The position numbers were made by a program, and so were the translations under genes. Positions 30,150 through 55,795 of a stretch of DNA of 64,000 bases are shown here, one piece after another. The notes beneath the pieces were generated by a model that saw nothing but the letters and a program-made list of their open reading frames with translations, was not told where the DNA came from and did not search any database. This DNA comes from Fidelibacterota bacterium (GTDB lineage: Bacteria; Fidelibacterota; UBA8477; JABMPR01): the NCBI GenBank assembly GCA_016844955.1, contig JAERTH010000083.1, forward strand, positions 15,712-79,711. The letters are read 5' to 3'. Position 1 is the stretch's first letter. Every line of letters starts with the position of its first letter.

Positions 30150-30250
30150 GTTAAGAAACCACATGACATCTGCAGGAAGCATCACTAATCAGAACAATTG
30201 GATCGGTGGAAAAGCTTGCTGCATCCACAAAATGCAGGGATGAATTAACC

Positions 30251-31507: not shown

Positions 31508-31535
31508 CACGCAATAATTATTGAAGGAGAAAATC

Positions 31536-32225
31536 ATGATAAAAACTGAAAAGCTCAACAAAGTATTTAGATCCGAGGAAATTGAAACCACTGCCCTCAA
31601 TGAAATTGACCTGGCTATTAAAGCAGGTGAATTTGTATCCATTATGGGACCATCTGGTTGTGGTAAATCTACCCTGATGAATGTGCTGGGGCTTCTGGAC
31701 AATCCCACATCTGGTCAATACCACTTCCTGGGTGAAGAGGTAGGCTCGTACAACGAACGTCAGCGGGCTGATTTTCGGAAAGCCAATATTGGTTTTGTTT
31801 TTCAGAGCTTCAACCTGATTGATGAATTGAGTGTCTATGAGAATGTTGAATTGCCACTGCTTTATCTGGGAGTGCAGGCAGCAGAGCGTAAGGAACGTGT
31901 GAATGCCATGTTAGAAAAAATGGGTGTTGGCCATAGAAACGGACATTACCCACAGCAACTCTCAGGAGGACAGCAGCAGCGTGTTGCTGTTTCCAGAGCT
32001 CTGGTTACTGATCCAAAAATTGTACTGGCTGATGAACCCACTGGAAATCTGGATTCACAACATGGTGATGAGGTCATGAATCTATTGAAAGATTTGAACC
32101 AGCAGGGGACAACCATCGTGATGGTGACCCACTCACCAGCATATGCTGCCTATGGCAACCGAACCGTCAATTTGTTTGATGGTAAAATTGCAGACGAGAC
32201 CCTTAATGGAAATTTCCATGTTTAA
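31536..32225 (+). CDS. ABC transporter ATP-binding protein (MacB/LolD-type)
   Basis: The track start TTG 31521 contains the RBS (AAGGAGA), so ATG 31536 is preferred. Walker A 'GPSGCGKST', Q-loop, signature 'LSGGQQQRVAVSRAL', Walker B 'VLADEPTGNLD'. Confidence 0.9.
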   Translation: MIKTEKLNKVFRSEEIETTALNEIDLAIKAGEFVSIMGPSGCGKSTLMNVLGLLDNPTSGQYHFLGEEVGSYNERQRADFRKANIGFVFQSFNLIDELSVYENVELPLLYLGVQAAERKERVNAMLEKMGVGHRNGHYPQQLSGGQQQRVAVSRALVTDPKIVLADEPTGNLDSQHGDEVMNLLKDLNQQGTTIVMVTHSPAYAAYGNRTVNLFDGKIADETLNGNFHV

Positions 32226-32270
32226 TCCCAATAGCTGTAATTACTCACCACCAAATATGGAGTATCGATT

Positions 32271-34727: not shown

Positions 34728-34762
34728 AATCCCCTCATCATGAAAGTGGTGGGGGGATTTTT
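34728..34762 (+). terminator. Rho-independent terminator of the ABC efflux operon
   Basis: 13-bp stem AATCCCCTCATCA / TGGTGGGGGGATT (2 G-U pairs), loop TGAAAG, followed by a T-run (34758-34762). Confidence 0.65.
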
Positions 34763-35091
34763 AATTCAATGTATAAACCACGCTGGCCCCAGAGGGATCC
34801 CCTTGATGACAATCAAATTGTTGTCGTCCGGGAGCCTTTCTATAACTTCCTATCTTGTAATTAGTTGCTAATAGTTTAATATTATCAATTAAAGAAATTC
34901 AGTCGTTACCCGATCTTAAGATATGAATCTTAAAATCGGTGGGAGTGGGGAAACACTATATCAATTCAGAATCAATCAGGTGGGTATTGTCCTATAGTAT
35001 TGCAGGCGTGGAATGCAGTCTCAATGGCGGGCTATGCTCACTCAAATCTATCAGCATTTAATTATCACCCGAAACTTTGGAGGAATTCACA

Positions 35092-39500: not shown

Positions 39501-42500
39501 ATGGATTTCATTCCTTCTATGTATATTCCGATTATCACATTCGCTACACGCTGATTCCTGACCTTATTGAACTCAGGAACCATGCTGAGCCAGAGGACTC
39601 CACACGCTTTGACCAGTCTATTACGTACTGGACAACCCTGCTTGAAACCAATGAGGCTGCCAAGGCCAGTGCAGTCCCCACCAATGCTGAATCCAATTCG
39701 GGTGAAGCACTGACCAACATCTCCTTTGATGCGTTGGCCAATTATGAGTATTCAACCACCACAGACAGTGCTGTTACCAATCAGACTGCAGTTACCATAT
39801 CTACCTATGATGCATTTGGAATGGATATTGGAGTCACCTGGAGTGGGATCGGCGTAGTCGGTGGATTCAATGATACCGATACAGAAACCGAAACCAATGA
39901 TACAACGGATGTGGCGAGTTATAGTCGGACTGTTGGCTTTTTCCTCAGTGATGATGATCCAGGTGATGCCTTTACTGTGGATGTCAAACGTGATACAGTC
40001 TGGGGAATGCCCGTGTTTGATCTGGTGGCCGGTCAAACCTCCAACCCGTGGGAAGCTGGCACCTTCAAACGCCAATGGTGCTCCATCGATGTGGATCCCG
40101 CATCTTCATTGGATAATGAACCGGATGAGGATGCCATACTAAACCTGACCCTGGGTAATTTGAGTGAAACTGGCGAGACGTGGACCTATGCTCTTGCAGC
40201 CTGGAACGAAACCAATCCAGACGGAGCCATCATACGTGTTAACGGGACGCCCATCACTGGAACCGATCTTATTTTCGAGATCGAAGCCGGAACCAGCTCC
40301 ATGGCAACCCTGGTCATCGAACGTGGGCCGGAGGCCTACCATTACGAGGGGTTGACGCTTGAATTTGCACCGCCTGGTGAGGTGGAGATTGCCGATGCCC
40401 TGGGTCGTGATCCTCAGAATTCGGCCACCACTGAATTCGATGTCCATTTTATTGCTCCTTGTTCAGAAGTATCGCTCACAACCCCTGAAGCAGATGGCTG
40501 GGTCATCAATCAAGCCAATGCTGATTCAGCTGGATCAGATAGCCTGCAGATTGTGTTTGCAGGTTATGACCGCACTGATACCGAGCTGGAGGATATTGTC
40601 CTTGAATATTCACGTCTAAATGAAGAGACCTGGTTCAATGGGATCGTGTTGGAGGGGATTGATACGCTGGAACAGGATTTTTGGACCATGTACTGGAATA
40701 CTACTGGAGTGTCTGAAGGCACCTATATGATTCGCGCACATGCGGGTTGCCGATTACGAGATAGCTTTTCCGAAACACGCATCGGTATCATTGATCGAAC
40801 CTCGCCCCAGATTCTGGGGGTACCTGCTCCTGTTGACCATGTTCTGAATGGAAATGATCAGATCATTCTGGCCATGACTGAATCAATTGATTGTGAACAG
40901 GTTTATCCCAATACAGGTGAACTGTTTTTCGCCCATACGGGTGAGGCTATCGCTGCTGAGGTTACTTGTAATGACAATGAGATTATCATTACACCAGCAG
41001 CATCCGTCTCCAACAGGGAGATCGAGAATCAGTTGCTCAGAGCCCAGGTGCAGTTTGTAAGGGATATGGTTGGTAATCCATTGTGGGATGTCACAGGAGA
41101 GGTCCTGGATACAGTAGCCTGGGAGTTTACAGTCGATCGCAATCCATTGCATTGGAATGTACCTGCCCACGATCAGATCGCCTATCTGGGTGAGGAAACC
41201 ATCATTCCCATCACGTTGAATAATAATGGCGCTGATGCAGCTTACTTCGAATTTGGAAATCTATTCCCATTGCCGGAGTGGGTGGTTGCTGAACCAGCTT
41301 ATGGTGAGGTGAATTCAGGTGGCAGTATGACAGTCTATCTCACCCTGGATCCTTATTTGAATCTCGGGGAGTATGATGCCCGCATCTTTGCGGAAACCCC
41401 TCTGGGGGATGAACCTCTGGATTTGACGGTTCATGCCATTTGTCGGCCACCAGAGTGGACCGTTGATGCAAGTCAGTTTCAGCATAACATGACCATCACC
41501 AGCCAACTCAGCATTCAAGGTGACGCCTCAATCGATGTTTATGATCGTGTGGGTGCCTTTGTTGATGGTGAGTGTCGGGGAGTGGCAGATGTTGAACACC
41601 TGGAGTCCACTGATTCAGTTGGTGTGGATTCCCTGGGTAACGCCATCTACGAAACCACGCATTTCTACCGCACATTTCTCACTGCATATAGCCCGGAGCC
41701 AGTAGGCGAAACGTTGGAGTTCCGCATCTGGGATGCTTCGGACTGTGAAGAATTGTGGGAAATCCAGCAACCCATTCCCTTCATGGCCAATACCATACAG
41801 GGTAGCCTGGATGATCCCTTCGTGTTGAATGCATCGGGGGCCATCGCCCAGCATATCGATCTATCGCAGGGGTGGACCTGGTTCAGTTTCAATCTCCAAT
41901 ATGGAGAGATGAACTTCAATGATGTCTTTGAGTTGTTAGGAGCATCAACCGGTGATCGCATTATCGCTGCTGATACATCGGCCTATGCCCAGTACTCTGA
42001 GAGCACTGGATGGGTTGGTCCACTCACCAGTCTGCCTGTCACCAATGTGGATATGTATCAGGCCGACATGCTGGAAGCAGCCAGCTTCCCCTTTGTGGGT
42101 TTTGTCATTGATCCGGATATCACCTCTATTGAGATGGAATCAGGTTGGAATCGCATCAGCTACACCCCCCAGGTGAATATGGAAACAGTTGAAGCCCTGT
42201 CAGGGATAACTCCATCCCCCGAGGACCAGATCAAGAGCCAGTACGGCTTCGCACAGTATGATGCCACCTATGGCTGGTATGGATCATTGGACTATCTGGA
42301 ACCAGGTGTGGGTTACATGATGCATCTGGCCCAGGCCGATACGCTGATCTATCCATCTGGAGTTGGCAGGTCCTCAGATCCTCTTTATGAAGAGGATCTA
42401 CCTGAGCAAGAACTGCGAGTTGATTGTCCCTGGACTGTCGATGAGAATCACTACCTGGACAATATGACTATCACAGCTCTATTGGAAAGTGATACACTGG

Positions 42501-43066
42501 GTCTTAATAATCCAGACGATGCCGTCGCTGCTTTTGTGGGTGATGCGTGTCGCGGTGTAGCCCGACCAGTCTATGTCCCGGAAATTGAATCTTATCGCAT
42601 TTATATCATGATTTATGGTGATCAGAGTGAGCAGATCAATTTCAGAATTTGGCAGGCGGAGGGTGATCTTACCTATCAGAGTGGAACTAGCTTTGACTTT
42701 CAGGCAGATCAACGCCTGGGTGGTCTGGTTGACCCCATCATGATTACAAGAACTCCACTGGGGATAGGGGACAAGGGCTATATACCAGAAGTCTTCAGTC
42801 TCAGCCAGAACTATCCAAACCCATTCAATCCGGTTACAACCATGGGATTTGGATTGCCTGAGGACGGTCACGTGAGTATTCGCATCTATAATATCCGTGG
42901 TCAGCAGATACGGACTTTGCTGGATGAAGACCTCACAGCCGGCTATCGTTTTGTCATCTGGAACAGTCAGAATGATGTTGGACACAAGGTGCCATCAGGT
43001 ATTTACCTCACTGTTATGGAGAGTGGTTCTTTCCGTGAGGTAAAAAAGATGGTGATGCTGAAATAG
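36530..43066 (+). CDS. Giant (2178 aa) multidomain LamG-containing T9SS cargo protein, paralogue 1
   Basis: Signal peptide. FN3-like 'PDAPLVNASDGE...YNYGVTVSN'. CarboxypepD_reg-like 'NGKIAGRVFTP'. LamG/ConA-like '...NWHHLACV...LYLDGD...FDGWLDDIRVWKTARS...GYWKFDEG'. Unassigned core beginning 'LPLFVLRDPPGDESYSF'. Big_5/SbsA-like 'IIDRTSPQILGVPAPVD'. Two 'WTVD...CRGVA...FRIW' modules. CTD 'QNYPNPFNPVTT...GIYLTVMESGSFREVKKMVMLK'. Confidence 0.85.
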   Translation: MTDKMRLKSKVLPGVFTTMMFLVVALTWAQTSSSEYQITQHSDVHGGQAVLTNTINNPAGPASMTITAGQVVVGKAEAPHFSTDLGLWSFYIKEPDAPLVNASDGESEHPAYITISAVQDVLSPPATGEISDASDFPAGNWVLTRDGVWKANIPVEDPAFNDDQSIYPGQLYNYGVTVSNKFGASLEGFDAGFTLPNGKIAGRVFTPGPTPGAPWNPAGNPVADVEVSLSPIRGKSARLDGENDFIGIDGDYEVEIDQSYSVELWINIDATPQLSTIADWGERLQVYHDNTDLTANVGGVEVSVALPSQQNWHHLACVLDTNEIILYLDGDSVKSAAVALMPESADLRFGKNRTLGQFFDGWLDDIRVWKTARSKDEISKNKDRALFGDEAGLIGYWKFDEGVNDISYDATAPRELASLEGAVWSSEIPAVRLSAFTDVHGFYEIRNVWYDASDDNGTTYTVTPFKKNHDFFSPNNSEATISRNSPEAPEVKFIDESLFTVSGYLVYDGTNCPVVHAEILADSMSTRPETFTDAYGKFTLDFEPNDGAALTVRFGGNFVYDTTTYEGSDDIDIDTSYVGAHTFHLDGVEQSYIVENIEADIADADFMDVHTKSIFLNIGGGTCMFPIGDASVDLRVAGQGEGFCYEVDDISVITGDGYQEIDGLPPLSYEMIVTHTNPDIEFDPMQLSLYDSSRHVEYMYNSDLQLTFSDFPWGEDCAVIAQHVADSLKATVYEEYGGYDGIDANRCPIKIFDVEILDDWSGIYTEREPFGSDNGEFWYHFQAGNPNILGGGEHPYQKRLQIVVIDELGRYASDDVWAIIEGRTATDGTDFASMPARTSELPLFVLRDPPGDESYSFLSEDQTICRTIGLEIEDEEADDNYTTVSLGADFGLETGVSSPFGSLLWSSELDATLDFNPTWGGYQTDLSLEETEVCITTSEIFSTDDGGLIVGGEGDVYVGATLNLTYSRIMDLYVEDCEVVIDTSHGINDMDGFHSFYVYSDYHIRYTLIPDLIELRNHAEPEDSTRFDQSITYWTTLLETNEAAKASAVPTNAESNSGEALTNISFDALANYEYSTTTDSAVTNQTAVTISTYDAFGMDIGVTWSGIGVVGGFNDTDTETETNDTTDVASYSRTVGFFLSDDDPGDAFTVDVKRDTVWGMPVFDLVAGQTSNPWEAGTFKRQWCSIDVDPASSLDNEPDEDAILNLTLGNLSETGETWTYALAAWNETNPDGAIIRVNGTPITGTDLIFEIEAGTSSMATLVIERGPEAYHYEGLTLEFAPPGEVEIADALGRDPQNSATTEFDVHFIAPCSEVSLTTPEADGWVINQANADSAGSDSLQIVFAGYDRTDTELEDIVLEYSRLNEETWFNGIVLEGIDTLEQDFWTMYWNTTGVSEGTYMIRAHAGCRLRDSFSETRIGIIDRTSPQILGVPAPVDHVLNGNDQIILAMTESIDCEQVYPNTGELFFAHTGEAIAAEVTCNDNEIIITPAASVSNREIENQLLRAQVQFVRDMVGNPLWDVTGEVLDTVAWEFTVDRNPLHWNVPAHDQIAYLGEETIIPITLNNNGADAAYFEFGNLFPLPEWVVAEPAYGEVNSGGSMTVYLTLDPYLNLGEYDARIFAETPLGDEPLDLTVHAICRPPEWTVDASQFQHNMTITSQLSIQGDASIDVYDRVGAFVDGECRGVADVEHLESTDSVGVDSLGNAIYETTHFYRTFLTAYSPEPVGETLEFRIWDASDCEELWEIQQPIPFMANTIQGSLDDPFVLNASGAIAQHIDLSQGWTWFSFNLQYGEMNFNDVFELLGASTGDRIIAADTSAYAQYSESTGWVGPLTSLPVTNVDMYQADMLEAASFPFVGFVIDPDITSIEMESGWNRISYTPQVNMETVEALSGITPSPEDQIKSQYGFAQYDATYGWYGSLDYLEPGVGYMMHLAQADTLIYPSGVGRSSDPLYEEDLPEQELRVDCPWTVDENHYLDNMTITALLESDTLGLNNPDDAVAAFVGDACRGVARPVYVPEIESYRIYIMIYGDQSEQINFRIWQAEGDLTYQSGTSFDFQADQRLGGLVDPIMITRTPLGIGDKGYIPEVFSLSQNYPNPFNPVTTMGFGLPEDGHVSIRIYNIRGQQIRTLLDEDLTAGYRFVIWNSQNDVGHKVPSGIYLTVMESGSFREVKKMVMLK

Positions 43067-43328: not shown

Positions 43329-44648
43329 ATGAAAACATCACTCAAAATACTGTTTCTCACCCTACTTATCTCTACAGTCTGGGCACAGTACCCGGCGCAA
43401 TGGACAGTGGATGCCCACGCCTTCGAGCACACCATGACATTAACCGGTGAACTGTTTATAAATGATGAACTTCAACTGGAAGCGACCAACGCTGTCGCCG
43501 CCTTTCACAATGATGAATGTCGCGGAGTCGTGGAAGGAACCACGGTTGGTGATGAGGTAATTTTTTTCCTACTCATTTATGGAAACACAGTAGGTGACAG
43601 CCTCGAATTTCGGGCCTGGGATGCCACCATAGGCAACGTGGTGCTCCTGGATGAAGAAATGTTATTTTCCAGTGGAGCAGCCCTGGGTGAAGTTGACGCT
43701 CCCTACCAACTCTCCGGGACCAACAGTCTGAGCTACATTGAAGCTTTTGCCGATGTATTTGAACAAGCCGAAGATACTGATGAGAGTGTACCCTTTGATA
43801 TCCTGGGGAATGATGTTTATGACCGCAGTCTGGCCATGGTCGTGACCTTCCCCATAGAGCCCCAACATGGGATGTTGTTTGAAAATGTTGATCAAACTTT
43901 CACATTTGTATCAGATCTGAACTTTTTCGGTCAGGATTCCTTTCAATACCGGGTTGCTCATGAATACGGTGCTGATTCAGCCTGGGTGCAAGTGAATATT
44001 ACCCCCATAGATGATCCTTTGGGAGCATTCCATCTCCAAAGCCCTCATGACAATAGTATGTTTGAACATGGTGGTAGCAGTTTTCAGGAATTCACCTGGG
44101 AAATCCCCGAGGAACTTGATGGCGACCCTATAAGCTATTCGCTGAATGTTTATGATGGAGTGACTTTAGACTCATCCTACAGTACAGATGCAAATACTTT
44201 TACAGTCAACCTTGAAGACCACAACCGTGACACCTGGCTGGACTGGCATGTCGTTGCTTATGATGGCTGGGGGTGGACCGTGTCTGCCGATACGTTCTCA
44301 ATCCAGATTTCAAGTCTGCTAAATACGGATCCAATTTCATACCTACCCGAGCGTTTTTCTTTGGGTCAGAATTATCCCAACCCATTTAATCCTGCGACAA
44401 AGATCTCCTACGAACTACCAGAAGCTGCGATCATTATACTGCAGGTATTTGATATTCATGGGAAATGTATGGCGAATGAGATGCTTGGGACTAAAGCTCA
44501 GGGAAGTCATCTGCATACTTTCGATCTAAGCAATCCGGAGTATTCAAATCTACGATCCGGGATTTATCTGTATCGCTTATCCGCGCTAACTTTGAATAGT
44601 AATACTCAACTATTCAAAGCCACCAGGCGGATGTTAATCCTTAAGTAG
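43329..44648 (+). CDS. Secreted protein: 'WTVD-CRG' module + cadherin-like Ig domain + FN3-like domain + T9SS CTD
   Basis: 439-aa ORF with a signal peptide. N-terminal 'QYPAQWTVDAHAFEHTMTLTG...AVAAFHNDECRGVVEG...LEFRAWDA' is homologous to the module repeated in the giants. 'DESVPFDILGNDVYD...GQDSFQYRV...VNITPIDDP' (bacterial cadherin-like). CTD 'QNYPNPFNPATKISYEL...GIYLYRLSA...RRMLILK'. Confidence 0.8.
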   Translation: MKTSLKILFLTLLISTVWAQYPAQWTVDAHAFEHTMTLTGELFINDELQLEATNAVAAFHNDECRGVVEGTTVGDEVIFFLLIYGNTVGDSLEFRAWDATIGNVVLLDEEMLFSSGAALGEVDAPYQLSGTNSLSYIEAFADVFEQAEDTDESVPFDILGNDVYDRSLAMVVTFPIEPQHGMLFENVDQTFTFVSDLNFFGQDSFQYRVAHEYGADSAWVQVNITPIDDPLGAFHLQSPHDNSMFEHGGSSFQEFTWEIPEELDGDPISYSLNVYDGVTLDSSYSTDANTFTVNLEDHNRDTWLDWHVVAYDGWGWTVSADTFSIQISSLLNTDPISYLPERFSLGQNYPNPFNPATKISYELPEAAIIILQVFDIHGKCMANEMLGTKAQGSHLHTFDLSNPEYSNLRSGIYLYRLSALTLNSNTQLFKATRRMLILK

Positions 44649-44943: not shown

Positions 44944-47331
44944 CTATTTGAGCAACATCATCTTCCGTGTTTCAACATTTGATCCCATGGATAGTCGATA
45001 AAAATAGACACCACTGGCTACGGGAGTACCATTAAAATCCTGGCCCTTCCACTGGTATGTGTAATGGCCGGCTGTCTGGAATCCAGCCTTCAGAACAGCG
45101 ATTTGCTGACCCAGTAAATTATGGACGGTGAGTTGACTGTAGCCATCCCCAGACAATTCATAGCTGATTGACGTGGTGGGGTTAAACGGGTTCGGGAAAT
45201 TTTGTGCCAACGAGAATGCCTGGGGTTTGAAACTTGACCACTTATCAATGGAGACTGTTGGTAATGAGTTGTGCCCAAAGAGGCCAAGATCTGTACCTGC
45301 CAGTAACTCATCATAAAAAAGCATATTGATGCGGGTTCCTACAGGATATTCATATCCAAGACTCCAGGCACTGCCCGAGAGTGGAAGGGAATAGATTTCG
45401 TTAGCTACTGCCACGTAAACTGTATCAAGTCCGATTGTAACCGCTGTGGCTTCAGCACCGCTTACAAAAGGAAACCCACTCACTGGCATGACGGTCCAAA
45501 GATTGGAGCTGTTGATGGGCTTGTAATAGGCTGTTGGGTGATTCGCACCCGCATCGGTTCCCACTGCGTATAGTGTATCCGTGCTTGGCGAGAGTTCCAT
45601 ATCCCAGAGGGTCACCACGATAACAGAACCAGTACTTGTGTTACTGGAACTCATATCCTGGGAAACAGTCCAGGAAGCGCCGGATTTCACAGCACGATAT
45701 ACACTGTAGCCCTGTGGTGAACCAAGATCATATATTGCGCTCATATAGGCCACTGTATCTGAGCCTTCAATATTGAAAACGATATCCGAGATATCCACAT
45801 CCTGCCCGGCTGAACTTGCTATGAGTAGCAACTGATCCCAATTGGTACCACCATCATGGGAGTAGAACACGCCTCCTTTATCGTTACCCTGGATCTCAAA
45901 ACCCGCGAAAACTACATTGGGATCACTCTCAAGCACTTCAATGGCAAGACATTTAGTCCCTACATTTGAATAATTGTAGGGAGCATTCTCCGGTGTGAAT
46001 ACCCGATTCCAGGTTGAGCCCTCATCTTCTGTCTTGTAGACCCTGACATTTCCAACATAAACATCATTGCTGTCTGATGGATTTAGCGCTGCAGAATAAT
46101 ATGGAGATCCATCACCATTGGGAAAAATAGCATTGGTCCACAGAGCGCCTGTGAGATAATCATCAACACGACGAATACCAGATTTAGAGGCAACCCATCC
46201 CGTCATTTTTGAGGCGGTCTGATCAAAGTCATTTACCTGAACCGCTTCTACACCGTTATTAATCTCGAAGATGCTAGCCCCCTGATCCTCAGAGACACCA
46301 ATACCTTGATCCGTGGTCATATAAACCATGTTGCCATTTATCGGATCCGTAAAAACTGTTCCATCGTTTGGGTGGGTCTCAAAGCCACCAGGATTTCCAA
46401 AAGTCTGCCAGGATCCAGACGCACCATTGGAGTGATTGTACATTTTAGCATGATACACTGTGTATGTCGTTGAATCACCACTAAAGGCAAAATCTTGACC
46501 TGTCACACCACCTTGACTGCTGGCAGCATAGGTCCAGGTGAGTTCATCATCTGTCTGGCCAATATATTTATCGCTCATATCTGAAGCGGAAACAAATAAG
46601 CGTCCACTGGGGGCAATGCCAAAAGCCACCCAACCCATGCTACTGCTTAGGCCAGTAGTGCTGACGGTGGAAAAAGTGGTAGCACTGCTCAGGGAGGAAA
46701 GTGGATCTGAGGTTTTCACAATCGTGGGGGAGGCTCCGTCAGTGAAGATGTAAACCTTCTCATCGATGGGATTCACGTCAATAGCCATAAAACCCCCGGG
46801 TGAACTGAAGCTCAACGGTGAGGCAGAATCCCAGGAAAGCCCACCGCTGGCATCCAGATCACCAAAATGAAGATCACTACCGTCAACCATGAGAATGCGA
46901 TCTCCATAAATTTCCAGAGCGTTGATACTCAATCCAGTGTATAAAACAGAACTGGTTGCAGAAGCAGGCTCCGTCTTGATGACTGAGTTTGGTGTTTGAA
47001 TGAAATAGAGCATCCCGGATGTTTCATGGGCTGCAATCTTTTGTATACCAGATCCATAGCCGGCTGTGGCATCAGCTCCAGGCATAACTTGAAAAGCACC
47101 ATAGACCTGAGAACTGGTATTTGAATGAACATCTGCAAAAAAAAGAGAGTTGGCACTTTCAGTTGCAATAAAAATTCTACTTGTATCAGCATTTAGTGAA
47201 ATGCCGGTGATATCATTAATTCTTCCACCATAAACAGCTTCTACATTGGGGGCGTCTAACTGGCCAAAAGCCAACTGGGATGTTAGGAACAGTCCCATCA
47301 GAACGATTTTTTGTGTGTCAATAGATTTCAT
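44944..47331 (-). CDS. BNR/Asp-box (sortilin-VPS10/GH74-like) beta-propeller protein with T9SS CTD
   Basis: 795-aa ORF with RBS AGGAG and a signal peptide. Asp-boxes 'SHDGGTNWDQL', 'TEDEGSTWNRV' and 'SEDQGASIFEI'. CTD 'QNFPNPFNPTTSISYEL...GVYFYRLSMGSNVETRKMMLLK'. Confidence 0.75.
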   Translation of the reverse strand: MKSIDTQKIVLMGLFLTSQLAFGQLDAPNVEAVYGGRINDITGISLNADTSRIFIATESANSLFFADVHSNTSSQVYGAFQVMPGADATAGYGSGIQKIAAHETSGMLYFIQTPNSVIKTEPASATSSVLYTGLSINALEIYGDRILMVDGSDLHFGDLDASGGLSWDSASPLSFSSPGGFMAIDVNPIDEKVYIFTDGASPTIVKTSDPLSSLSSATTFSTVSTTGLSSSMGWVAFGIAPSGRLFVSASDMSDKYIGQTDDELTWTYAASSQGGVTGQDFAFSGDSTTYTVYHAKMYNHSNGASGSWQTFGNPGGFETHPNDGTVFTDPINGNMVYMTTDQGIGVSEDQGASIFEINNGVEAVQVNDFDQTASKMTGWVASKSGIRRVDDYLTGALWTNAIFPNGDGSPYYSAALNPSDSNDVYVGNVRVYKTEDEGSTWNRVFTPENAPYNYSNVGTKCLAIEVLESDPNVVFAGFEIQGNDKGGVFYSHDGGTNWDQLLLIASSAGQDVDISDIVFNIEGSDTVAYMSAIYDLGSPQGYSVYRAVKSGASWTVSQDMSSSNTSTGSVIVVTLWDMELSPSTDTLYAVGTDAGANHPTAYYKPINSSNLWTVMPVSGFPFVSGAEATAVTIGLDTVYVAVANEIYSLPLSGSAWSLGYEYPVGTRINMLFYDELLAGTDLGLFGHNSLPTVSIDKWSSFKPQAFSLAQNFPNPFNPTTSISYELSGDGYSQLTVHNLLGQQIAVLKAGFQTAGHYTYQWKGQDFNGTPVASGVYFYRLSMGSNVETRKMMLLK

Positions 47332-47779: not shown

Positions 47780-49087
47780 ATGTATCGTTCAAGTTGTAAA
47801 GTGATTGTAGTGTTTTTGTTTATTGTTTCAAGTCTGTTGGGCCAAAATCTTAGCATGCAAGGGGTTGCTCGAGACAATTCTGGACAATCCCTGCCTGATG
47901 GTTCTTATAGTTTTACTTTTCGTCTGTATACAACAGAAACAGGTGGGACCGCAGAATGGACAGAGAATCAGAATCTGGATGTTTTGAATGGAGTTTTTAG
48001 TACTGTCCTGGGTGAGATTATTGATGGAGAAAGCAGTATGGTCGATCTCGATTTCAATGATGAGTATTGGCTAAGTATCGAGATTGAAGGGAATGGACAG
48101 CTGGAGCCCCGCACCAAGTTGATCCTGTCACCTTATGCTATTATGGCAGGGCTTTCAGGAACGACGAATGTGGTACCCGAGTCTGGTAATGTTGGTATTG
48201 GGACTGACACTCCCGCGGAATTGCTCCACGTTAAAGGGGCAACCCTCGTGGAAGTAAATTCTGTTGAAACGGATATCAGTACTCTTCCGGGGCTGACCAT
48301 CGCTAACATGGCACGTTCAGGTGGAAATCAGATCTCCGGTAATCGCAGTAAACTGGGTTTCAAGCAATGGATGTCCTGGGATGATTACGTAGAAGCCGGT
48401 GCCATCGTCACAGGAAACAATACCAATAATTACAATCTTGGATACATGGCATTTCATACCAACAATGAGCATGCTGGCGGACTGCTTGAAAGGATGAGAA
48501 TCGACTGGAACGGGAATGTAGGCATCGGGACCAGTAGTCCAGAATATCCCCTTCATATTGCAAGACCCAACGCTTCACTGCGGCTCACCATGGAACGAAC
48601 AGACAACACACATGAAGCTTTTCTTCAGTTTCGTACTGGAGGTGTAAACAAGGCTCTTTTTGGGTTCGATAATGACATGAACGATCTCAGTATCTATACC
48701 TATGACTATGGTCGAGTGATCACCTTTGAGAGTGCCACGGGTGAAGTGGGTATCGGTGATGCAACCCCGGATGCCAAGCTGGATGTTGCAGGCTCACTGG
48801 ATATAGATTCATGGAAAACACAGGATCTTTCTGCCAATGGTTATGTGAAGATGGGTGGACTCATCATGCAGTGGGGTGTATTTGAGTGTACTCTGGATGA
48901 CACACAGACTGAAAGTTTTCCAATTGCCTTCCCCAATGCCTGTTTCGGTGTTTATTCAAACCGCAAGGAATCAAATGTGGAATCGCCCATCACTGTAAAC
49001 TCATGGAGTACGACAAGTTTCACTGTTAACAGAGATGATGGCATTGGTGGGTCTGAGACAGTCAATTGGTTTGCAGTCGGGCATTAA
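47780..49087 (+). CDS. Tail-fibre-like secreted protein, paralogue 2 (cassette 2 small partner) with phage-fibre-tip-like C-terminus
   Basis: 435-aa ORF with a signal peptide. N-domain 'QGVARDNSGQSLPDGSYSFTFRLY..ETGGTAEW'. Three GNVGIGT-type repeats. C-terminus 'GGLIMQWGVFECT...ESFPIAFPNACFGVYSN...TTSFTVNR' resembles the 'LIIQWG...FPIAFPN.C' tip domain of phage tail-fibre proteins. No CTD. Confidence 0.7.
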   Translation: MYRSSCKVIVVFLFIVSSLLGQNLSMQGVARDNSGQSLPDGSYSFTFRLYTTETGGTAEWTENQNLDVLNGVFSTVLGEIIDGESSMVDLDFNDEYWLSIEIEGNGQLEPRTKLILSPYAIMAGLSGTTNVVPESGNVGIGTDTPAELLHVKGATLVEVNSVETDISTLPGLTIANMARSGGNQISGNRSKLGFKQWMSWDDYVEAGAIVTGNNTNNYNLGYMAFHTNNEHAGGLLERMRIDWNGNVGIGTSSPEYPLHIARPNASLRLTMERTDNTHEAFLQFRTGGVNKALFGFDNDMNDLSIYTYDYGRVITFESATGEVGIGDATPDAKLDVAGSLDIDSWKTQDLSANGYVKMGGLIMQWGVFECTLDDTQTESFPIAFPNACFGVYSNRKESNVESPITVNSWSTTSFTVNRDDGIGGSETVNWFAVGH

Positions 49088-49142: not shown

Positions 49143-52100
49143 ATGAATAAATCATTTCAAGCGGGATATCGACGTCTAAGGCAGTCTTTGATCCTGTTGC
49201 TCTTGCCCACAATTGCACTTACCCAGGATTACCAGGTTGATCTTCAGATCGTCTCCGGAGGTGCTGGTACCATGAGTGGTTCCCTTCCTTTTAATGGGGA
49301 ACTCATCTCTGGAAATGTTAGTGTGATTGTTAATCAACCGATTATGACAACCCAGACCATGTCAGGTGGAATTTATAAAATAGACCTGGGGTATTGGTCT
49401 CAAATGCTGAGAACACCCGGTACACCTATTGTTAAGGCAAGCTATGACATATATCCGGATCAGGTTAAATTGGAATGGCGCTATGATCCAAATGATCCTC
49501 CCGGAACAGAGAAACACAAGATCTATCGAAATTATAGTTCAAATCCTGCTTACATTTACGAGACACCTTCAGGAGATACCAGCTATACGGACACTGAGCT
49601 TCCAGCGGGTCATCAGTATGAATACCTGGTTCGTGGCAGCAATCGCATTCAATCTGCTACAACCTACCAGCCCCTTACCCATGCAGGGATTTCTTTTGGA
49701 AAAACCAGCAGCAATGGATCCATTGGTGGATTCATTAAAACAACTTTGAATACACCCATACCTAATGTGAGAGTCACTGCCATGAACGCGGCCGGGAGCG
49801 GTCCGGCCTGGGGGCAGTCTGTCTATTTGGATGGCCTCGAGAACTCAGTCACCATAGCTGATGCAGATGCCTTTGAATTGTTTGATGCGGCTGTTTCTGA
49901 TGCCAGAACCCTGGAAATGTGGTTTAGGCCTGAGGTATCCGGACTCCAGACGCTGATCTCCAAGGGAAGCCAATGGGAGGTGGGTATCAATGTCGATGGC
50001 CTCAACTATGTTTATTTAAACATGAATGATGAACCCATCTTCACTACGGATATCCTTCAATCCCAGGCAATCAGTATTAATGAATGGAATCATGTAGCCC
50101 TGGTGAGAGATGCTACTACCCTGCGAGTTTATATCAACGGCTGGCTGGCAACCATCAATGGCGGAGATGAGAGCGTCACTGTGTCCAATCAGATTGGGAC
50201 GAGTGCCTCTGTCTCCCTGGGCGATGGGGCAGATCATCATTTTTACCGTGGTCTCGTCGATGAGCTCCGTTGCTGGAGCGAGGCGCGCGATGAGATGTTC
50301 ATGGAACCCTATTCCGATGTAAACAACAGTGGTGCCTTTGAGGACTCATCTGATTTCTTTACCGATATCAATGGTGATGGCTTCTGGGGATCCAGTGATT
50401 CAACGGCCATCAAGCGTGACTATGACCGACTTTTCGACTACATGGTTGAAGGGATTATTGCCGAACCCACACTTGAGGCTTGCTTTCACATGGATATGGG
50501 CTCCGGACAAACTCTGATCAATTCAGTCGATATCGAGAACAATGGAAGCCTTATGGGAGGCTGGTCTACCACCCAGGCTCCGGTTTATCCCTGTGTCTAT
50601 ACAGATGCCAATGGCGGCTATACGATCAAGAACTTGAACTTTGGGAGTGGTAGGACATTTCGGGTGGTTCCCTTAAAGGCCTTTCATGAATTTGACAACC
50701 CCCATCAGGATGTCTCACTCAGCATTTATACACCAGCCAATTACACCACACATTTTAATGTGGTCAACATGATTTCCATTTCTGGTTATGTGACTTACTC
50801 AGAGGTTGGAACCAATGGATCAGCCTGTGGTGAACCCGATGTGGAAATCTGGGTTGATGGTGCCAATATGGGTGAAAGAACCGATGCAGACGGATTTTAC
50901 ATGCTCGAGGTGGAACCCGGTCGTACAGTGACGATTGTTCCCCACAAAGGAGGTCGGGAGCCGGGACATTTTTCGCCCCAGACTAAGACTTTCTTCAGTG
51001 TAGTATCTCCTCAAAGCAAGGATTTTGTAGATTCAAAACTACGTACCATACGAGGTAGTGTAACCGGTGGTGCCTGCGAATATCCTGTAGGTCCCAGTGG
51101 GATTGCTACCATCACCCTGAGTGCTGACGATGGTTGTTTCAGTTTAGACACCCCCGTTGATGCAGCGGGAAATTATGAGTTTGCCAATATTGCACCCATG
51201 GCATACTCACTTGGCGTGGGTATTGATACTGATGTTAGCAATATTCCCAATTTGCTTGAAATGAACACGTATTTCCAGAATAATGGTGCAACCATAGATC
51301 TTGAATCATCATTTGATCCAATAGATTCTGTCTGGATCACTGAAGAAGATACGGTAAAATTCAATTATCGGTCACCCATACAATTGAGGGTTGAAGGTTG
51401 GACCACCAACCCGTTGAATGATTACTACTTTGAACAGAATGGTGCTGACACACTGGATGTTTATGTTTATGAGCATTACTATGGGGGAGAGTGTCCCATG
51501 GATTCCGGTATTGTCCATATCAAGGATTGGATATCGGATCGCTATGTAGATGGTGATGCTGAAGATGGTGTTGCATTCAATTTCGCCCAGGACAGGGACG
51601 ACTATGATATTCCTAGCCTCAGGTATGGCCTCATACCGGGATTCCCTCGCTTTGAGGGTGATCACAGAAAGAATATTGAACTCATGGCTACTGATCCGTC
51701 AGGCAACATAAGTACGGATTCTGAAGCGTACCGGGCAGTTGTCCTTGGACAAAAATCGAATCAACTAAATTTTGCTACGACAGCACCTGAAATCCCTTTG
51801 TTGATTTTGAGACGCCCTCCCGGTGATGGTAGTTGGGCCAGCTTTTCTGAATCCAACACTTCATCTACCTCATTCTCCATGAGTTTGGGAAGCGCGGATA
51901 GCGAAGAAGGCAGCATTACTGCCAGCCTGGGTGTAGAAACCGAGATCAATGTTGCTCCCTGGGGAGTTGGGATGTCCTTCGATATTGATGCCCAATATGA
52001 TATAGAATCAGGTTTTTCTACTACCGCTTCACTTCAGAACAGCAGTACTATGCAATGGACAACCACAACATCAACAGAGTATACTACGGCCACCGCAGTA

Positions 52101-55100
52101 GAGCTCATGGGTGATCTGGGTACCGTTTTTGTGGGGGGAGCTATGAACTTGCTCTATGGTTCTACTAATATGCTCAGCTTGGTTGAGGATGATGGTGAAT
52201 ACGATTATCTAGTTACTCACCCCGTCATTTTCATGCCAAACGGTTTTGAAACAACCTACATCTATACGAGAGGTTATATTGAAGACTCTTTGTTGCCCGA
52301 ACTTGAGTTCCTGTCAGCAACCGACAGCAATCTGGTTAGGAGTATAGATCGCTGGAATTACATTTTGAATTACGAAGACTCGCTGCGGTGGATAACTCCT
52401 TCTGATTCTAATTTTAGCTTTAATGGCGGTGGTCAATCTATGACAGTCACCCACACTTCAGAAGGCAGTGAATCCCTGGTGTTTGAAGAAACACTTGATT
52501 TGGAATCATCATTTGCTGAAACCATGGGTCTGGAAGTATCTGGAGTTGGTGTAAGTGGAACCTCAAAAGTGACCACAAGCTTCCACCTTGGAAGCTCTGA
52601 GGAAGAAACATGGACGAATACGACCACCACCTCTTATACGCTCATGGATGATGATGGTAATGCTGAGTACGGTTACGATGATTATACGGTTGATGTCGGG
52701 AGCGATCCTGTCTATGGAACACCTGTTTTTAGGGTGATAGCCGGAAATTCATCCTGCCCTTATGAGGAATGGCGCAATGAAGTGGATTCGGTGGTTACCA
52801 CACCTCGGGATGAGCCAGGTATGAATTGGATATCACCCAGCACGGTGGTCAATGTTCCCCCCGATGATCCGGCAGAGTTGTGGATCGGTTTGAGTAATCT
52901 ATCCAGTCTTGATGAATCGAGGGTCTATTTCCTGTCCTATCTCAGCTCAAGTAATACTTATGGGGCACAGATTCTGATCAATGGTGAAGATGCTGATGAA
53001 TCCGCACCCATTCCCTTTGAATTAGAATATCTGGGGAATGATTCCGCGCTAATCACCGTTTCACGACCCGAGGGTTCGGATACCTATGAATTTGATGGTC
53101 TGATGATCAAATTCGCTCCGGAATGTGAAACCAATTACGCAGGTGTTACGCAAGGTTATACTGCATCTTTTGATGTCCGTTTCGCCAGACCCTGTACTGA
53201 GGCCGATATTTATCAACCCGTTGAAAATTGGGTCGTTAATACCATCACAGGTGATACAATGACCGTGGTTGTACAGGACTACGATCTGGGACAATCATAC
53301 TTTGATGAGCTGTTTGTGCAGTACTCAGCCATGGGAAGCGAAGACTGGTTTGCAGTGGATACTCTCATTGCAGACACGCTACGCCACTATGACTATCTGT
53401 ACAGTCAACTCAAGTGGGATGTCGGCTTATTGGAGGATGGCGTTTATGACATACGATTGATGTCGCGCTGTCTTGATGGCCTGCTGAACAATATGATGGA
53501 TCCGGTTCGAGGTGTTTTGGATCGACAAATCCCTGAAGTCCTGGGATCACCTGAACCCCTGGATGAAGTGCTGAATTTCAACGATGAGATTGCACTTAAC
53601 TTTACCGAGTCAATTAATCCGGAATCAGTGGATGCTGTGAACGTTACTCTGTATGATCTCAGCATGGATCAAACCATCACCGATTTTGATCTATCTGTTT
53701 CAGAAGAACGTCTGGTAATCAACCCAACCCTGCAAAACCGATTTATTGAGAATCATGCCTTAATGGCTACAGTGAAGGGACATGAAGATCTCTACGGGAA
53801 TCCGGGAGATTCTACATCCTGGCAATTCATTGTGGATCGTAATCCCGTGGCCTGGAGTACTTCGGATTTGGAACATATTGCCTTCCAGGGAGAGCCTGAA
53901 CCTGTTGTTCTACAGTTGAATAACACCGGGTCCACGGCACAACCCTTTTTCTTCTCAGGAACAGCAGACCAGAATGGCACACCCTTGCCTGAATGGCTCA
54001 CTGTTTCTCCCTTAGAAGGATCACTCAATCCAGGTGGCTCATTTGATATTACCATTGATGTGGCTTCCGATTTGAATAGTGGTGAATATGATGTCGTCAT
54101 CTATGCCGTAACACCAGAAGGCTATGAACCCTTTGTGCTGCATGTGGTTTCCATGTGTCCATATCCTGACTGGAGTTTCGATTTTACTGAATATGAATAC
54201 TCCATGAATGTCACAGCCAATGTGTATCAGATGTCAACTTTGTCAGATGACATCTATGACCGGGTGGCTGCCTATGTCGGTGATGAGTGTCGTGGCTGGG
54301 CACAACTGGAGTACGTCCCTGAACTGGATGATTATCAGGCCTTTATCACTGTCTTCAGTAATGAATGGAGTGGGGAAGAAGTCCAATTCCATATCTGGGA
54401 TCGCACCGAATGTTCTGAATACTGGCAGGCTGACACCAGCGTGACCTTTATTGAAGGGGAAGCCTACGGAAGTCCCATGGAGCCTATCGCCTTGAACGCC
54501 ACTGGAGAACTGGGTCAAAATATCGATCTTCACAGTGGTTTCACCTGGATGTCACTCAATCTGGATGCAGATGATATGAGTATGGCTTCGATTCTTGAAG
54601 GTATTGAAGCAACCCCTGGAGATCGCATTATCGGGCATGAAGCTTTTGCTCAATATTCTGATTCTTCCGGATGGTCTGGAACGCTTACCTCCCTTGACAA
54701 CTACTCAATGTACCAGCTTGATCTGGAAAATGCCGATGAACTCATTCATGTGGGTTTGCCAGTTCAGCCAGATATCACCAATATTGAAATCGCCTCAGGT
54801 TGGAATTGGATTTCCTATCTTCCTGTTGAGAATATCAATGTGAATCACGCCTTGTCCTCACTGCTGAATAGCACGGATGATTTGATTAAAAATCAGTCAC
54901 AGTATGCTCAATTCGTGGATGGCGTTGGCTGGTTGGGAAGCTTGAATCGCATGCACCCTGGAATGGGATACAAGTTGGAGTCCTTTGAAGGTGGTATGCT
55001 GAATTACCCCCCCAGTGAAAGTATCACCCTGGGCCGTTCAATCGCATCAAATGACCCCGTTGAATTGCCTGAGTTACCCTGGACCCTCGAGGAAATGCCT

Positions 55101-55718
55101 CATTTTCAGAATAATATGACTATTACAGCGTTGCTGGAAAGTGATACCATCGGTGTCAACAATCCTGGTGATGCTGTCGTGGCATTTGCGGGTGAAGAAG
55201 TACGTGGGATTGCCAGGCCAATCTACATCCCCGAGCTGCATGCCTATCGTGTCTTCCTTATGATTCAGGGTGATTCCGGGGAAGAAATCAGTCTGAAAAT
55301 CTGGGACTCCGAGAATGATGTCCAGTACCAGGCTACCCGGTCAATGAACTTCCAGGCGGATGCTGTGCATGGAACGCCTCTGAATCCTTATATGCTGGCC
55401 AGAGCGCCACTTGGAATCGGAGATAAGGGCTATGTGCCAGATGTGTATTCACTGGCTCAGAACTATCCCAATCCTTTCAATCCAACGACCAATATTGGAT
55501 TTGGACTACCAGAAGATACCGAAGTATCCATACAGATCTACAATCTCAGGGGGCAATTGGTTACAAATCTTATGGAAGGACCGCTGACAGCTGGTTATCG
55601 CTACATCAAATGGTCCGGTCTAAATGATAATCAGCATCGACTACCCTCAGGTGTATATCTGGTGGTCATGAATACTGAGTCATTTAGAGATGTGAAAAAG
55701 ATGGTACTGCTGAAATAA
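49143..55718 (+). CDS. Giant (2191 aa) multidomain LamG-containing T9SS cargo protein, paralogue 2
   Basis: The track ORF starts at 49035, inside the upstream gene. Met at 49143 (MNKSFQAGYRRLRQSLILLLLPTIALTQ) gives a signal peptide. Collinear with paralogue 1: FN3-like, 'NGSIGGFIKT', LamG ('WNHVALV...VYINGW...YRGLVDELRCWSEAR'), core 'IPLLILRRPPGDGSW', 'LDRQIPEVLGSPEPLD', two WTVD/CRG-type modules. The CTD has 68/107 identical residues to paralogue 1 in my by-eye alignment. Confidence 0.85.
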   Translation: MNKSFQAGYRRLRQSLILLLLPTIALTQDYQVDLQIVSGGAGTMSGSLPFNGELISGNVSVIVNQPIMTTQTMSGGIYKIDLGYWSQMLRTPGTPIVKASYDIYPDQVKLEWRYDPNDPPGTEKHKIYRNYSSNPAYIYETPSGDTSYTDTELPAGHQYEYLVRGSNRIQSATTYQPLTHAGISFGKTSSNGSIGGFIKTTLNTPIPNVRVTAMNAAGSGPAWGQSVYLDGLENSVTIADADAFELFDAAVSDARTLEMWFRPEVSGLQTLISKGSQWEVGINVDGLNYVYLNMNDEPIFTTDILQSQAISINEWNHVALVRDATTLRVYINGWLATINGGDESVTVSNQIGTSASVSLGDGADHHFYRGLVDELRCWSEARDEMFMEPYSDVNNSGAFEDSSDFFTDINGDGFWGSSDSTAIKRDYDRLFDYMVEGIIAEPTLEACFHMDMGSGQTLINSVDIENNGSLMGGWSTTQAPVYPCVYTDANGGYTIKNLNFGSGRTFRVVPLKAFHEFDNPHQDVSLSIYTPANYTTHFNVVNMISISGYVTYSEVGTNGSACGEPDVEIWVDGANMGERTDADGFYMLEVEPGRTVTIVPHKGGREPGHFSPQTKTFFSVVSPQSKDFVDSKLRTIRGSVTGGACEYPVGPSGIATITLSADDGCFSLDTPVDAAGNYEFANIAPMAYSLGVGIDTDVSNIPNLLEMNTYFQNNGATIDLESSFDPIDSVWITEEDTVKFNYRSPIQLRVEGWTTNPLNDYYFEQNGADTLDVYVYEHYYGGECPMDSGIVHIKDWISDRYVDGDAEDGVAFNFAQDRDDYDIPSLRYGLIPGFPRFEGDHRKNIELMATDPSGNISTDSEAYRAVVLGQKSNQLNFATTAPEIPLLILRRPPGDGSWASFSESNTSSTSFSMSLGSADSEEGSITASLGVETEINVAPWGVGMSFDIDAQYDIESGFSTTASLQNSSTMQWTTTTSTEYTTATAVELMGDLGTVFVGGAMNLLYGSTNMLSLVEDDGEYDYLVTHPVIFMPNGFETTYIYTRGYIEDSLLPELEFLSATDSNLVRSIDRWNYILNYEDSLRWITPSDSNFSFNGGGQSMTVTHTSEGSESLVFEETLDLESSFAETMGLEVSGVGVSGTSKVTTSFHLGSSEEETWTNTTTTSYTLMDDDGNAEYGYDDYTVDVGSDPVYGTPVFRVIAGNSSCPYEEWRNEVDSVVTTPRDEPGMNWISPSTVVNVPPDDPAELWIGLSNLSSLDESRVYFLSYLSSSNTYGAQILINGEDADESAPIPFELEYLGNDSALITVSRPEGSDTYEFDGLMIKFAPECETNYAGVTQGYTASFDVRFARPCTEADIYQPVENWVVNTITGDTMTVVVQDYDLGQSYFDELFVQYSAMGSEDWFAVDTLIADTLRHYDYLYSQLKWDVGLLEDGVYDIRLMSRCLDGLLNNMMDPVRGVLDRQIPEVLGSPEPLDEVLNFNDEIALNFTESINPESVDAVNVTLYDLSMDQTITDFDLSVSEERLVINPTLQNRFIENHALMATVKGHEDLYGNPGDSTSWQFIVDRNPVAWSTSDLEHIAFQGEPEPVVLQLNNTGSTAQPFFFSGTADQNGTPLPEWLTVSPLEGSLNPGGSFDITIDVASDLNSGEYDVVIYAVTPEGYEPFVLHVVSMCPYPDWSFDFTEYEYSMNVTANVYQMSTLSDDIYDRVAAYVGDECRGWAQLEYVPELDDYQAFITVFSNEWSGEEVQFHIWDRTECSEYWQADTSVTFIEGEAYGSPMEPIALNATGELGQNIDLHSGFTWMSLNLDADDMSMASILEGIEATPGDRIIGHEAFAQYSDSSGWSGTLTSLDNYSMYQLDLENADELIHVGLPVQPDITNIEIASGWNWISYLPVENINVNHALSSLLNSTDDLIKNQSQYAQFVDGVGWLGSLNRMHPGMGYKLESFEGGMLNYPPSESITLGRSIASNDPVELPELPWTLEEMPHFQNNMTITALLESDTIGVNNPGDAVVAFAGEEVRGIARPIYIPELHAYRVFLMIQGDSGEEISLKIWDSENDVQYQATRSMNFQADAVHGTPLNPYMLARAPLGIGDKGYVPDVYSLAQNYPNPFNPTTNIGFGLPEDTEVSIQIYNLRGQLVTNLMEGPLTAGYRYIKWSGLNDNQHRLPSGVYLVVMNTESFRDVKKMVLLK

Positions 55719-55757
55719 TTACAAGCACTAGATCCCTACAATTAGTAGATGTAAAAA

Positions 55758-55795
55758 GCGGGGTCGATTAACCATCGGCCCCGCTTCGTTCTATT
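55758..55795 (+). terminator. Terminator hairpin after giant gene 2
   Basis: GCGGGGTCGA-ttaacca-TCGGCCCCGC (10-bp stem, 1 G-U pair) followed by TTCGTTCTATT. Confidence 0.55.

Follow-up and report, generated by a model that had tools for sequence, protein, structure and literature searches.

The closest described relatives of the genes reported here are the mosaic adhesive trimers (MATs), defined in Bdellovibrio bacteriovorus as proteins in which a signal peptide and a conserved beta-rich N-terminal domain (N-domain) of ~130 amino acids (aa) precede a meandering trimeric fibre (Caulton et al., Nat Microbiol 2024, PMC10769870). Their tips are diverse, being either an S74 chaperone-protease, which is cleaved off C-terminally, or one of several non-S74 folds, and are exchanged between paralogues. 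The Bdellovibrio proteins (Bd2133, Bd1334, Bd3182, Bd2439, Bd2734 and Bd2740; PDB entries 8OND, 8OML and 8OJN) were described in 2024 as a prey-recognition repertoire, and the Discussion of that work left open what the N-domain binds on the cell and by which route the fibres reach the surface (PMC10769870). Here we describe three related genes in a 64-kb window (the whole stretch of DNA analysed, from contig JAERTH010000083.1) of a Marinimicrobia-type bacterium; their products are named c1, c2 and c3, with c2 occupying the coordinates under study. We consider it probable that these are MAT-superfamily fibres whose base is constant, whose shaft is modular and whose tips can be exchanged, each paired with a giant type IX secretion system (T9SS) cargo protein. 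The MAT fibre architecture was already known, as was its occurrence in the Fibrobacteres-Chlorobi-Bacteroidetes (FCB) group, proteins from which are listed in Supplementary Table S3 of the same paper (PMC10769870). New are the Marinimicrobia members, the tips (one Gp53-like, the other two from families without annotation), a tip swap recorded in nature and mapped to its junction and, above all, a pairing with a giant T9SS protein that is conserved across phyla.

Like the Bdellovibrio MATs, c1-c3 begin with a signal peptide followed by a conserved beta-rich N-domain (~100-130 aa), continue in modules, predicted to be beta-helical, that bear the same G-N-[VL]-G-[IL]-G-T..P..KL.V motif, and end in unrelated tips that are swapped between paralogues, of which there are several per genome. 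They differ in being much shorter (435-756 aa, compared with ~1000 aa), in their N-domain scores against the Bdellovibrio subfamily model (16-25 bits, with a cut-off of 60), in carrying tips outside the described set (Gp53-like_C and the two unannotated families), in belonging to a Marinimicrobia-type bacterium that is not known as a predator, and in the pairing of each gene with a giant T9SS cargo gene, which is unreported for Bdellovibrio. From its N-terminus c1 reads as a Sec signal peptide, a MAT-type N-domain, three shaft modules and tip 1, and the other two follow the same plan (coordinates of all features are collected in Table 1).

The three N-domains (~100 aa) are 34-37% identical in pairwise comparison (BLASTP over the first ~130 aa, E 1e-24 to 1e-27), bearing out a preliminary description of this DNA in which the three proteins had been aligned over that stretch. 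The NCBIfam model NF053851, Bdello_MAT_N ('mosaic adhesive trimer family chimeric fiber protein' by its title), matches all three at residues ~10-109, with E-values of 1e-5 (c1, residues 15-109), 6e-3 and 8e-4. By the homology of their sequences c1, c2 and c3 are assigned to a broad MAT fibre superfamily as paralogous members. When a profile of the N-domain only was searched against 1.84 billion representative proteins (clusters at 50% identity), it returned 53,737 clusters at E <=1e-3 and 27,948 at E <=1e-10, in host proteins of 140-1540 aa with the domain almost always at residues ~22-122. Bdello_MAT_N matched 90 of 91 representatives of this family (best E 5e-20), whose C-terminal parts included Peptidase_S74 (14), YadA_head (6) and DUF5907 (5), single cases of Collar, Gp10_C, collagen, PRD1_P5_C and others, and, for most, no Pfam-known domain at all. 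The same N-domain thus marks an enormous family of more than 50,000 sequence clusters, for which there is no Pfam-A model, the sole model being the NCBIfam one tuned to Bdellovibrio. The best matches to the window in GTDB and JGI scans, at 77-82% identity, were metagenome-assembled genomes (MAGs) of Candidatus Neomarinimicrobiota, by which the window is placed in a Marinimicrobia-type organism. No match to the N-domain was found in 50,697 phage genomes or in a pattern scan of IMG/VR; the base is cellular, and the shaft and some tips are common to phage fibres. The YadA_head repeats in some superfamily proteins recall the YadA-family trimeric autotransporters, which are trimeric fibrous adhesins with modular heads; unlike those, c1-c3 have no C-terminal membrane-anchor barrel and their polarity is reversed, with the base N-terminal and the tip C-terminal.

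The shaft also ties these proteins to the solved Bdellovibrio fibres. A hidden Markov model (HMM) of the motif GNVGIGT..P..KL.V finds three copies in c1, three in c2 and seven in c3, the same counts as in the preliminary description, and scored >=5 bits in only 1 of 600 shuffled proteins. The seven copies of c3 lie ~70 aa apart, four of them strong and three degenerate but in register; since the model was built from strong copies, only the degenerate ones are independent detections. The top PDB matches of all three fibres are 8OND and 8OML, by way of the shaft motifs, which align with the crystallised trimeric beta-helix shaft of Bd2133 (8OND; E 8.6e-11 for c3, 3.5e-9 for c2 and 1.1e-4 for c1) and, in c2, with the Bd1334 fibre (8OML; E 1.6e-6). 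Because the motif sits at the borders of successive beta-helix subdomains in Bd2133, each ~70-110-aa unit of c1-c3 most likely forms one beta-helix module, and homology to the solved Bdellovibrio trimers predicts that the three proteins are homotrimeric.

Beyond the last repeat the three proteins part company. Neither tips 1 and 2 nor tips 2 and 3 resemble each other (Smith-Waterman z -0.2 and 1.1). Between tips 1 and 3 a borderline match runs colinearly through DDW..DE.G..C..WE[IV] (z 2.7, equalled by 22 of 1000 shuffles), and hhalign of a 13-sequence tip-1 profile with a 2-sequence tip-3 profile was not significant (E 0.034, probability 1.5%). Over the Smith-Waterman shuffles and the hhalign runs with 2-, 6- and 13-sequence profiles, p ranged from ~0.02 to 0.16 with hhalign probabilities of <=1.5%, and we do not claim homology between these two tips. 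The tips, described beforehand as mutually unalignable, may thus be called unrelated at the sequence level, with a common fold of tips 1 and 3 possible.

The likeness of tip 2 to a phage tail-fibre tip, also remarked on before, proved well founded: it matches Pfam Gp53-like_C (PF21882) at E 1.1e-16 (61.6 bits, curated cut-off 24.9), in the PDB it hits 4MTM as well as 6CT8/6CL6, the R2 pyocin fibre, and it aligns at 32-36% identity with 30 phage records, which are tail fibre or tail proteins where annotated. On this homology (E 1e-5 to 1e-16 over these comparisons) we take tip 2 to be a genuine phage/pyocin receptor-binding domain. Its parent protein resembles the phage and R-pyocin fibres further in its constant shaft with exchangeable receptor-binding tips, and PHROG tail-fibre families match both the shaft motifs and tip 2; unlike those fibres, c1-c3 start with a signal peptide and the cellular N-domain rather than a baseplate-attachment domain, and they do not lie in a phage or tailocin cluster but among GH16, GH5 and GH3 glycoside hydrolases, a TonB-dependent receptor, a MacAB-like exporter and T9SS cargo. 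A comparison of the tips with phage fibre families, suggested in the preliminary description, therefore succeeded for tip 2 and failed for tips 1 and 3, which had no Pfam, PHROG or phage match.

Thirteen sequences make up the tip-1 family. A word-index search with tip 1 found no homologues, and these were recovered through full-length queries and metagenome loci. From these 13 sequences AlphaFold2 predicted an eight-stranded all-beta domain (predicted local distance difference test, pLDDT, 82.6; predicted template-modelling score, pTM, 0.71). Foldseek found nothing at E <=0.001 for this model in PDB or BFVD, and its weak top matches were H-type lectins (3WMP, 2CCV and 2CGY; TM 0.36-0.50) and phage fibre tips, so that the likeness of the modelled fold to H-type lectins may serve as a lead but not as an assignment. 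Two earlier statements about tip 1 had to be given up. It is not Cys-rich, having three Cys only, none invariant among the 13 homologues and the one at the FCD position alone nearly so; and its real module is ~114 aa, shorter than the ~120-150 aa given for the tips, the 50 aa before it being assigned to the shaft because a chimeric relative shares them. Tip 3 was found by jackhmmer in c3 and one other protein only (P0162).

The chimeric relative emerged from N-domain scans of GTDB genomes and JGI metagenomes, which gave 101 loci (numbered with L; proteins are numbered with P). In this protein (L027, identical to P0161), found on at least 24 contigs, the body matches c1 at 68% identity over 348 aa and c2 at 34%, and the last 103 aa are 73% identical to the c2 tip and unrelated to tip 1, with the crossover directly after 'GGTV.[VM]GG'. 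Tip swapping in other genomes, which had been proposed as a check, is thus seen at one junction, and with it the conserved base and shaft with exchangeable receptor-binding tips that had been conjectured. Another protein (P0164) matches c3 over the first ~500 aa of the latter (51% identity) and adds a Peptidase_S74 domain, a pattern repeated at 39-42% identity in P0167 and P0168. Exchange reaches into the shaft: c1-type fibres L003, L029, P0166 and P0169 have a c3-like mid-shaft module (37-39%), and two shaft modules have been lost from the c1 orthologue of L002. Mosaicism thus exists in the shaft as well as in the tips, and tips are modular, moving by recombination just after the last shaft module. 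In natural populations tips are seen to move between fibre bodies, and one of them, on a cellular fibre, is a receptor-binding domain of phage/pyocin type. The architecture had been called a hallmark of the way in which phages and tailocins diversify their receptor-binding proteins; the architecture itself was correctly seen, but it already belongs to a named family, the MATs. Other fibres keep their tips: c1 orthologues at 58-70% identity in Marinimicrobia metagenomes retain tip 1, and the c3 orthologue P0162 (762 aa, from a Marinimicrobia MAG; 51% identity overall, 66% over the tip region) retains tip 3.

On each of the three fibres the hydrophobic segment of a Sec signal peptide stops right before a Gln (..TTA|QTIS, ..LLG|QNLS and ..LSA|QSIT), in keeping with the 'Q-rule' of Bacteroidetes for substrates of signal peptidase I. 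Searches of c1-c3 found no T9SS C-terminal sorting domain (Por_Secre_tail/TIGR04183 or CHU_C; Pfam and NCBIfam, E up to 1) and no match to YadA_anchor or another barrel (Pfam and NCBIfam); a lipobox is likewise absent from all three.

Each fibre gene is followed on the same strand, after a gap of 55-65 bp, by a gene for a giant protein, and none of these three gaps contains a terminator-like hairpin; strong hairpins of this kind stand instead before the first fibre-giant module and after the second. The giants are ~30% identical to one another (30% over 2270 aa for giants 1 and 2). All three have a signal peptide and a LamG match by profile search (in giant 1 Laminin_G_3 at 1.3e-18, together with Por_Secre_tail), and giants 1 and 2 also contain immunoglobulin (Ig)-like domains and end in a type A sorting domain for T9SS; giant 3 runs off the window before its C-terminus. 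Their ~1000-aa core has no Pfam or PDB match, whether searched as a single sequence or as a 14-sequence profile, the only matches in these proteins being LamG, Ig-like and sorting domains. Like the Bacteroidota surface appendages SprB and GhpA, the latter the grappling-hook protein of Aureispira (bioRxiv 10.1101/2024.01.29.577165), the window giants are very large Sec- and T9SS-dependent surface proteins with dedicated partner genes; adhesion is the role of SprB and GhpA. These two proteins are built of Ig-like repeats over ~6000 aa, and the partners of GhpA are PorP/PorE homologues (bioRxiv 10.1101/2024.01.29.577165), unlike the window giants with their ~2200 aa, LamG, unique ~1000-aa core, type A sorting domain and MAT-like fibre partner. 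GhpA and SprB were set aside as relatives of the giants on architecture alone, as given in their descriptions.

The pairing recurs far from the window. A giant-1 orthologue, 72% identical, follows the c1 orthologue in L002, and 20 of 53 informative loci, drawn from Neomarinimicrobiota, Cyclobacteriaceae, Lewinellaceae, Bacteroidia, Ignavibacteriae and Melioribacteraceae, have a homologous giant (2050-2460 aa) directly downstream of their fibre gene or genes; giant 3 is the best match for the giants of the Bacteroidota and Ignavibacteriota loci. Such a giant is missing directly downstream in the other informative loci, several of which carry tandem arrays of 2-5 fibre genes, MAT-like paralogues with the N-domain right after the signal peptide (L045, L048, L055, L059, L060, L062, L069 and L083). 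When the N-domains were placed in a neighbour-joining tree, one clade took in every giant-linked copy and just one intruder. The association itself is strong: the nearest N-domain from another locus is also giant-linked for 22 of the 24 linked copies, against an average of 7.6 and at most 17 when labels were shuffled, and in 16 of 18 loci a c1- or c3-like N-domain goes with a giant of the corresponding subtype (g1- or g3-like). Which tip a giant-linked fibre carries varies freely, from S74 (in L004, L007, L008 and L010) and Lcl_C (in L013) to Gp53-like tips, tip 1, tip 3 and unknown ones. Fibre and giant thus appear to form a two-gene unit conserved across FCB phyla, and the 'partner' relation between them that had been suggested for the window is a gene pair kept across phyla. 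We found no report of a MAT fibre paired with a T9SS giant in the literature searched, the coverage of which was incomplete, so that this is weak evidence of absence. The pairing bears on the question of what the MAT N-domain binds, and a subclade locked to one kind of giant in T9SS-bearing phyla offers a concrete, testable candidate for an anchor or carrier.

Some giant-linked loci have features of their own. In L004 the giant after an S74-tipped fibre is split in two open reading frames (ORFs), whether by a frameshift or stop codon or through an error in the assembly. Five g3-type modules, those of the Bacteroidota MAGs L008 and L013 and of the metagenome contigs L034-L036, have a LuxR-type response regulator upstream, and most of them also a dedicated HisKA_2 sensor kinase (TPR or 7TMR-DISM). 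A conserved, Pfam-negative ORF overlaps the stop codon of the giant in L007, L008, L034, L036 and L041; the corresponding place after giant 3 falls outside the window.

Taken together, we suppose that the Sec signal peptide would export each fibre, which would assemble as a homotrimer a few tens of nm long, with a ~100-aa base, 3-7 beta-helical modules each opened by the motif, and an independently folding C-terminal tip that would set binding specificity. By homology the fibre would be displayed on the cell surface, where the tip may bind a glycan or protein ligand and so mediate adhesion to particles, algae or other cells by way of their glycans. The gene context suggests that the giant, anchored at the surface via T9SS, could be a docking platform and/or an export carrier for the fibre N-domain. 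We put forward, tentatively and as one possibility, that the giant is the cognate docking platform of the fibre, and maybe its carrier through the T9SS, that is, the MAT 'surface element' in a large FCB clade, because the fibre is without a T9SS sorting domain of its own while the giant goes to the surface by T9SS. S74-type tips are cleaved off C-terminally (PMC10769870); by our own reasoning this would leave no room for a C-terminal sorting signal. Were docking true, the system would be a two-part modular adhesin, in which a constant platform receives plug-in fibres with exchangeable tips.

Several points weigh against this account. Trimerisation, surface display and ligand binding would follow from homology to the Bdellovibrio proteins, and c1-c3 score far under the curated cut-off of Bdello_MAT_N; by sequence they are homologues of that subfamily model and not its members. 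The AlphaFold2 model of tip 3 was unusable (pLDDT 37.7, from two sequences). As to the giant, no recognisable fibre-binding domain was found in it by Pfam and PDB searches, co-variation of adjacent genes is expected from co-inheritance alone and is no proof of contact, and the clean giant-linked clade (at most one intruder) was recovered in 36 of 100 bootstrap replicates, a modest support. The loci had moreover been gathered with peptide patterns from the window and are a biased sample. Most members of the N-domain superfamily, including those of Bdellovibrio, have no giant neighbour, and the N-domain therefore needs no giant in general.

The last point leads to the alternative that fares best, namely that fibres and giants are independent adhesins, co-transcribed and co-inherited for one task such as attachment to particles or prey, with the N-domain binding not the giant but a general envelope component (lipopolysaccharide or an outer-membrane protein), as is presumed for Bdellovibrio. 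The size of the largely giant-free superfamily, the many N-domain genes in fibre-only tandem arrays and the arrival of Bdellovibrio MATs at the surface without a T9SS all fit this explanation, as does the fact that linkage alone yields synteny and subtype co-variation. To our knowledge Bdellovibrio has no T9SS. We nonetheless hold independence to be rather unlikely, on the grounds that the giant-linked N-domains form a distinct subgroup, that adjacency has been kept over at least three phyla and down to ~27-30% giant identity despite free exchange of tips and modules, and that the fibres carry no recognised outer-membrane export signal in an organism with T9SS. Much less plausible is that these proteins are periplasmic or released soluble lectins, their N-domain being a stable oligomerisation cap. 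A Sec signal peptide as the only export signal, with no lipobox, sorting domain or autotransporter barrel, would agree with that, but phage-type receptor-binding tips are sensible only outside the cell, the homologous MAT fibres are surface-displayed, and the partner is consistently a surface-directed T9SS cargo. Least credible of all is a prophage or tailocin remnant, that is, leftover tail-fibre genes without cellular function, to which the PHROG matches of the shaft and tip 2 and the phage/pyocin nature of the latter might point: phage structural, integrase and lysis genes were not found near the fibre genes in the window, where glycoside hydrolases, an ABC exporter and T9SS cargo surround them, each of the three has a signal peptide and an intact ORF, orthologues of c1 and c3 are conserved in several populations, and G+C content is uniform across the region. 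A prophage origin was accordingly rejected on the chromosomal neighbours and on the missing N-domain in phage genomes and IMG/VR.

Table 1. Coordinates of the fibre genes, their domains, the giant partner genes and neighbouring features (window positions unless a locus is named)
Feature	Coordinates	Strand	Extent	Remarks
Fibre gene c1	35077-36465	+	462 aa from TTG; 457 aa from the gene caller's ATG 35092	ORF list, translation
c1 N-domain	35152-35448	+	~100 aa	Directly after signal peptide; hmmsearch with N-domain profile, 126.7 bits
c1 shaft	35476-35967	+	Motifs at aa 134-155, 203-224, 276-297	Each motif opens a ~70-aa module; motif HMM 36-40 bits each
Tip 1	36121-36465	+	aa ~349-462	Small domain, predicted all-beta; junction set by chimera L027/P0161
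Fibre gene c2	47780-49087	+	435 aa	
c2 N-domain	47840-48148	+		N-domain profile, 131.4 bits
c2 shaft	48179-48799	+	Motifs at aa 134-155, 243-264, 319-340	Motif HMM 37-40 bits
Tip 2	48800-49087	+	aa ~341-435	Gp53-like_C, phage tail-fibre/R-pyocin receptor-binding 'foot' domain
Fibre gene c3	56389-58659	+	756 aa	N-domain, 7 shaft motifs, tip 3
c3 N-domain	56449-56745	+		
Tip 3	58366-58659	+	aa ~660-756	Orphan domain with one known orthologue
Giant 1	36530-43066	+	2178 aa	Signal peptide, LamG, Ig-like domains, ~1000-aa uncharacterised core, T9SS type A sorting domain
Giant 2	49143-55718	+	2191 aa from ATG 49143; mechanical ORF start 49035	Pfam LamG, Big_5, Por_Secre_tail
Giant 3	58719-64000	+	at least 1760 aa	Frame open to window end
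Terminator-like hairpin	34728-34759	+	14 pairs	Between MacB gene and c1; upstream bound of module 1
Terminator-like hairpin	55756-55786	+	13 pairs, 8 G-C	Just after giant 2; downstream bound of module 2
Glycan utilisation-like locus	138-26994			
PorV-like gene	18773-19825			Within the preceding locus
VTC-domain and DUF4956 genes	28154-29616			
MacAB-like exporter genes	30206-34703			
Big_9/cadherin-like cargo gene	43329-44648		439 aa	
Sortilin-Vps10-like gene	44944-47331	-	795 aa	
Split giant, L004	11526-14396, 14402-17896			Two ORFs, together 11526-17896
Upstream region of g3-type module, L008	232-3018			
Upstream region of g3-type module, L013	582-6212			
Upstream region of g3-type module, L034	1441-4539			
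Upstream region of g3-type module, L035	8444-9154			
ORF downstream of giant, L007	18970-20298			
ORF downstream of giant, L008	12536-13750			
ORF downstream of giant, L034	16381-17367			
ORF downstream of giant, L041	19417-20283			

The fibre-giant modules lie in the ordinary chromosome of a T9SS-bearing glycan degrader; the chromosomal, signal-peptide-bearing context remarked on in the preliminary description was confirmed, the neighbours being metabolic genes and T9SS cargo rather than a prophage. The first part of the window is a locus resembling those for beta-glucan/laminarin utilisation, in which several genes have T9SS sorting domains. Its glycoside hydrolase genes are GH2, GH3, three of GH16 and one of GH5+CBM6; it further encodes a CBM9 protein, a solute-binding protein, an SSF symporter, a TonB-dependent receptor, a PorV-like protein and a histidine kinase with a sigma-54 response regulator. 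Marinimicrobia are abundant, uncultured and marine, and the placing of three modules beside such a locus hints that they may serve to attach the cell to algae, particles or other cells. Further along, a pair of genes for a VTC-domain and a DUF4956 protein has no evident tie to the fibre modules.

Directly upstream of c1 is a MacAB-like exporter (HlyD, ABC ATPase and MacB/FtsX), which is syntenic in the close relatives L003, L028 and L103-L106 and not in other phyla. It was considered as an export route for the fibres and rejected, given that its synteny is limited to close relatives and that a strong terminator stands before c1.

After giant 1 comes a Big_9/cadherin-like T9SS cargo gene, and the same gene follows the giant in L103-L106; the N-terminal domain of its product (aa 21-135) is homologous to one that the giants carry in two copies near their C-terminus (aa 1640-1773 and 1968-2043 in giant 1). 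Between modules 1 and 2 lies a gene of opposite strand, whose product has a weak Sortilin-Vps10 match and a T9SS sorting domain. Its orthologue is directly upstream of the single chimeric fibre gene in L103-L106, and the order of modules has therefore been rearranged between related genomes.

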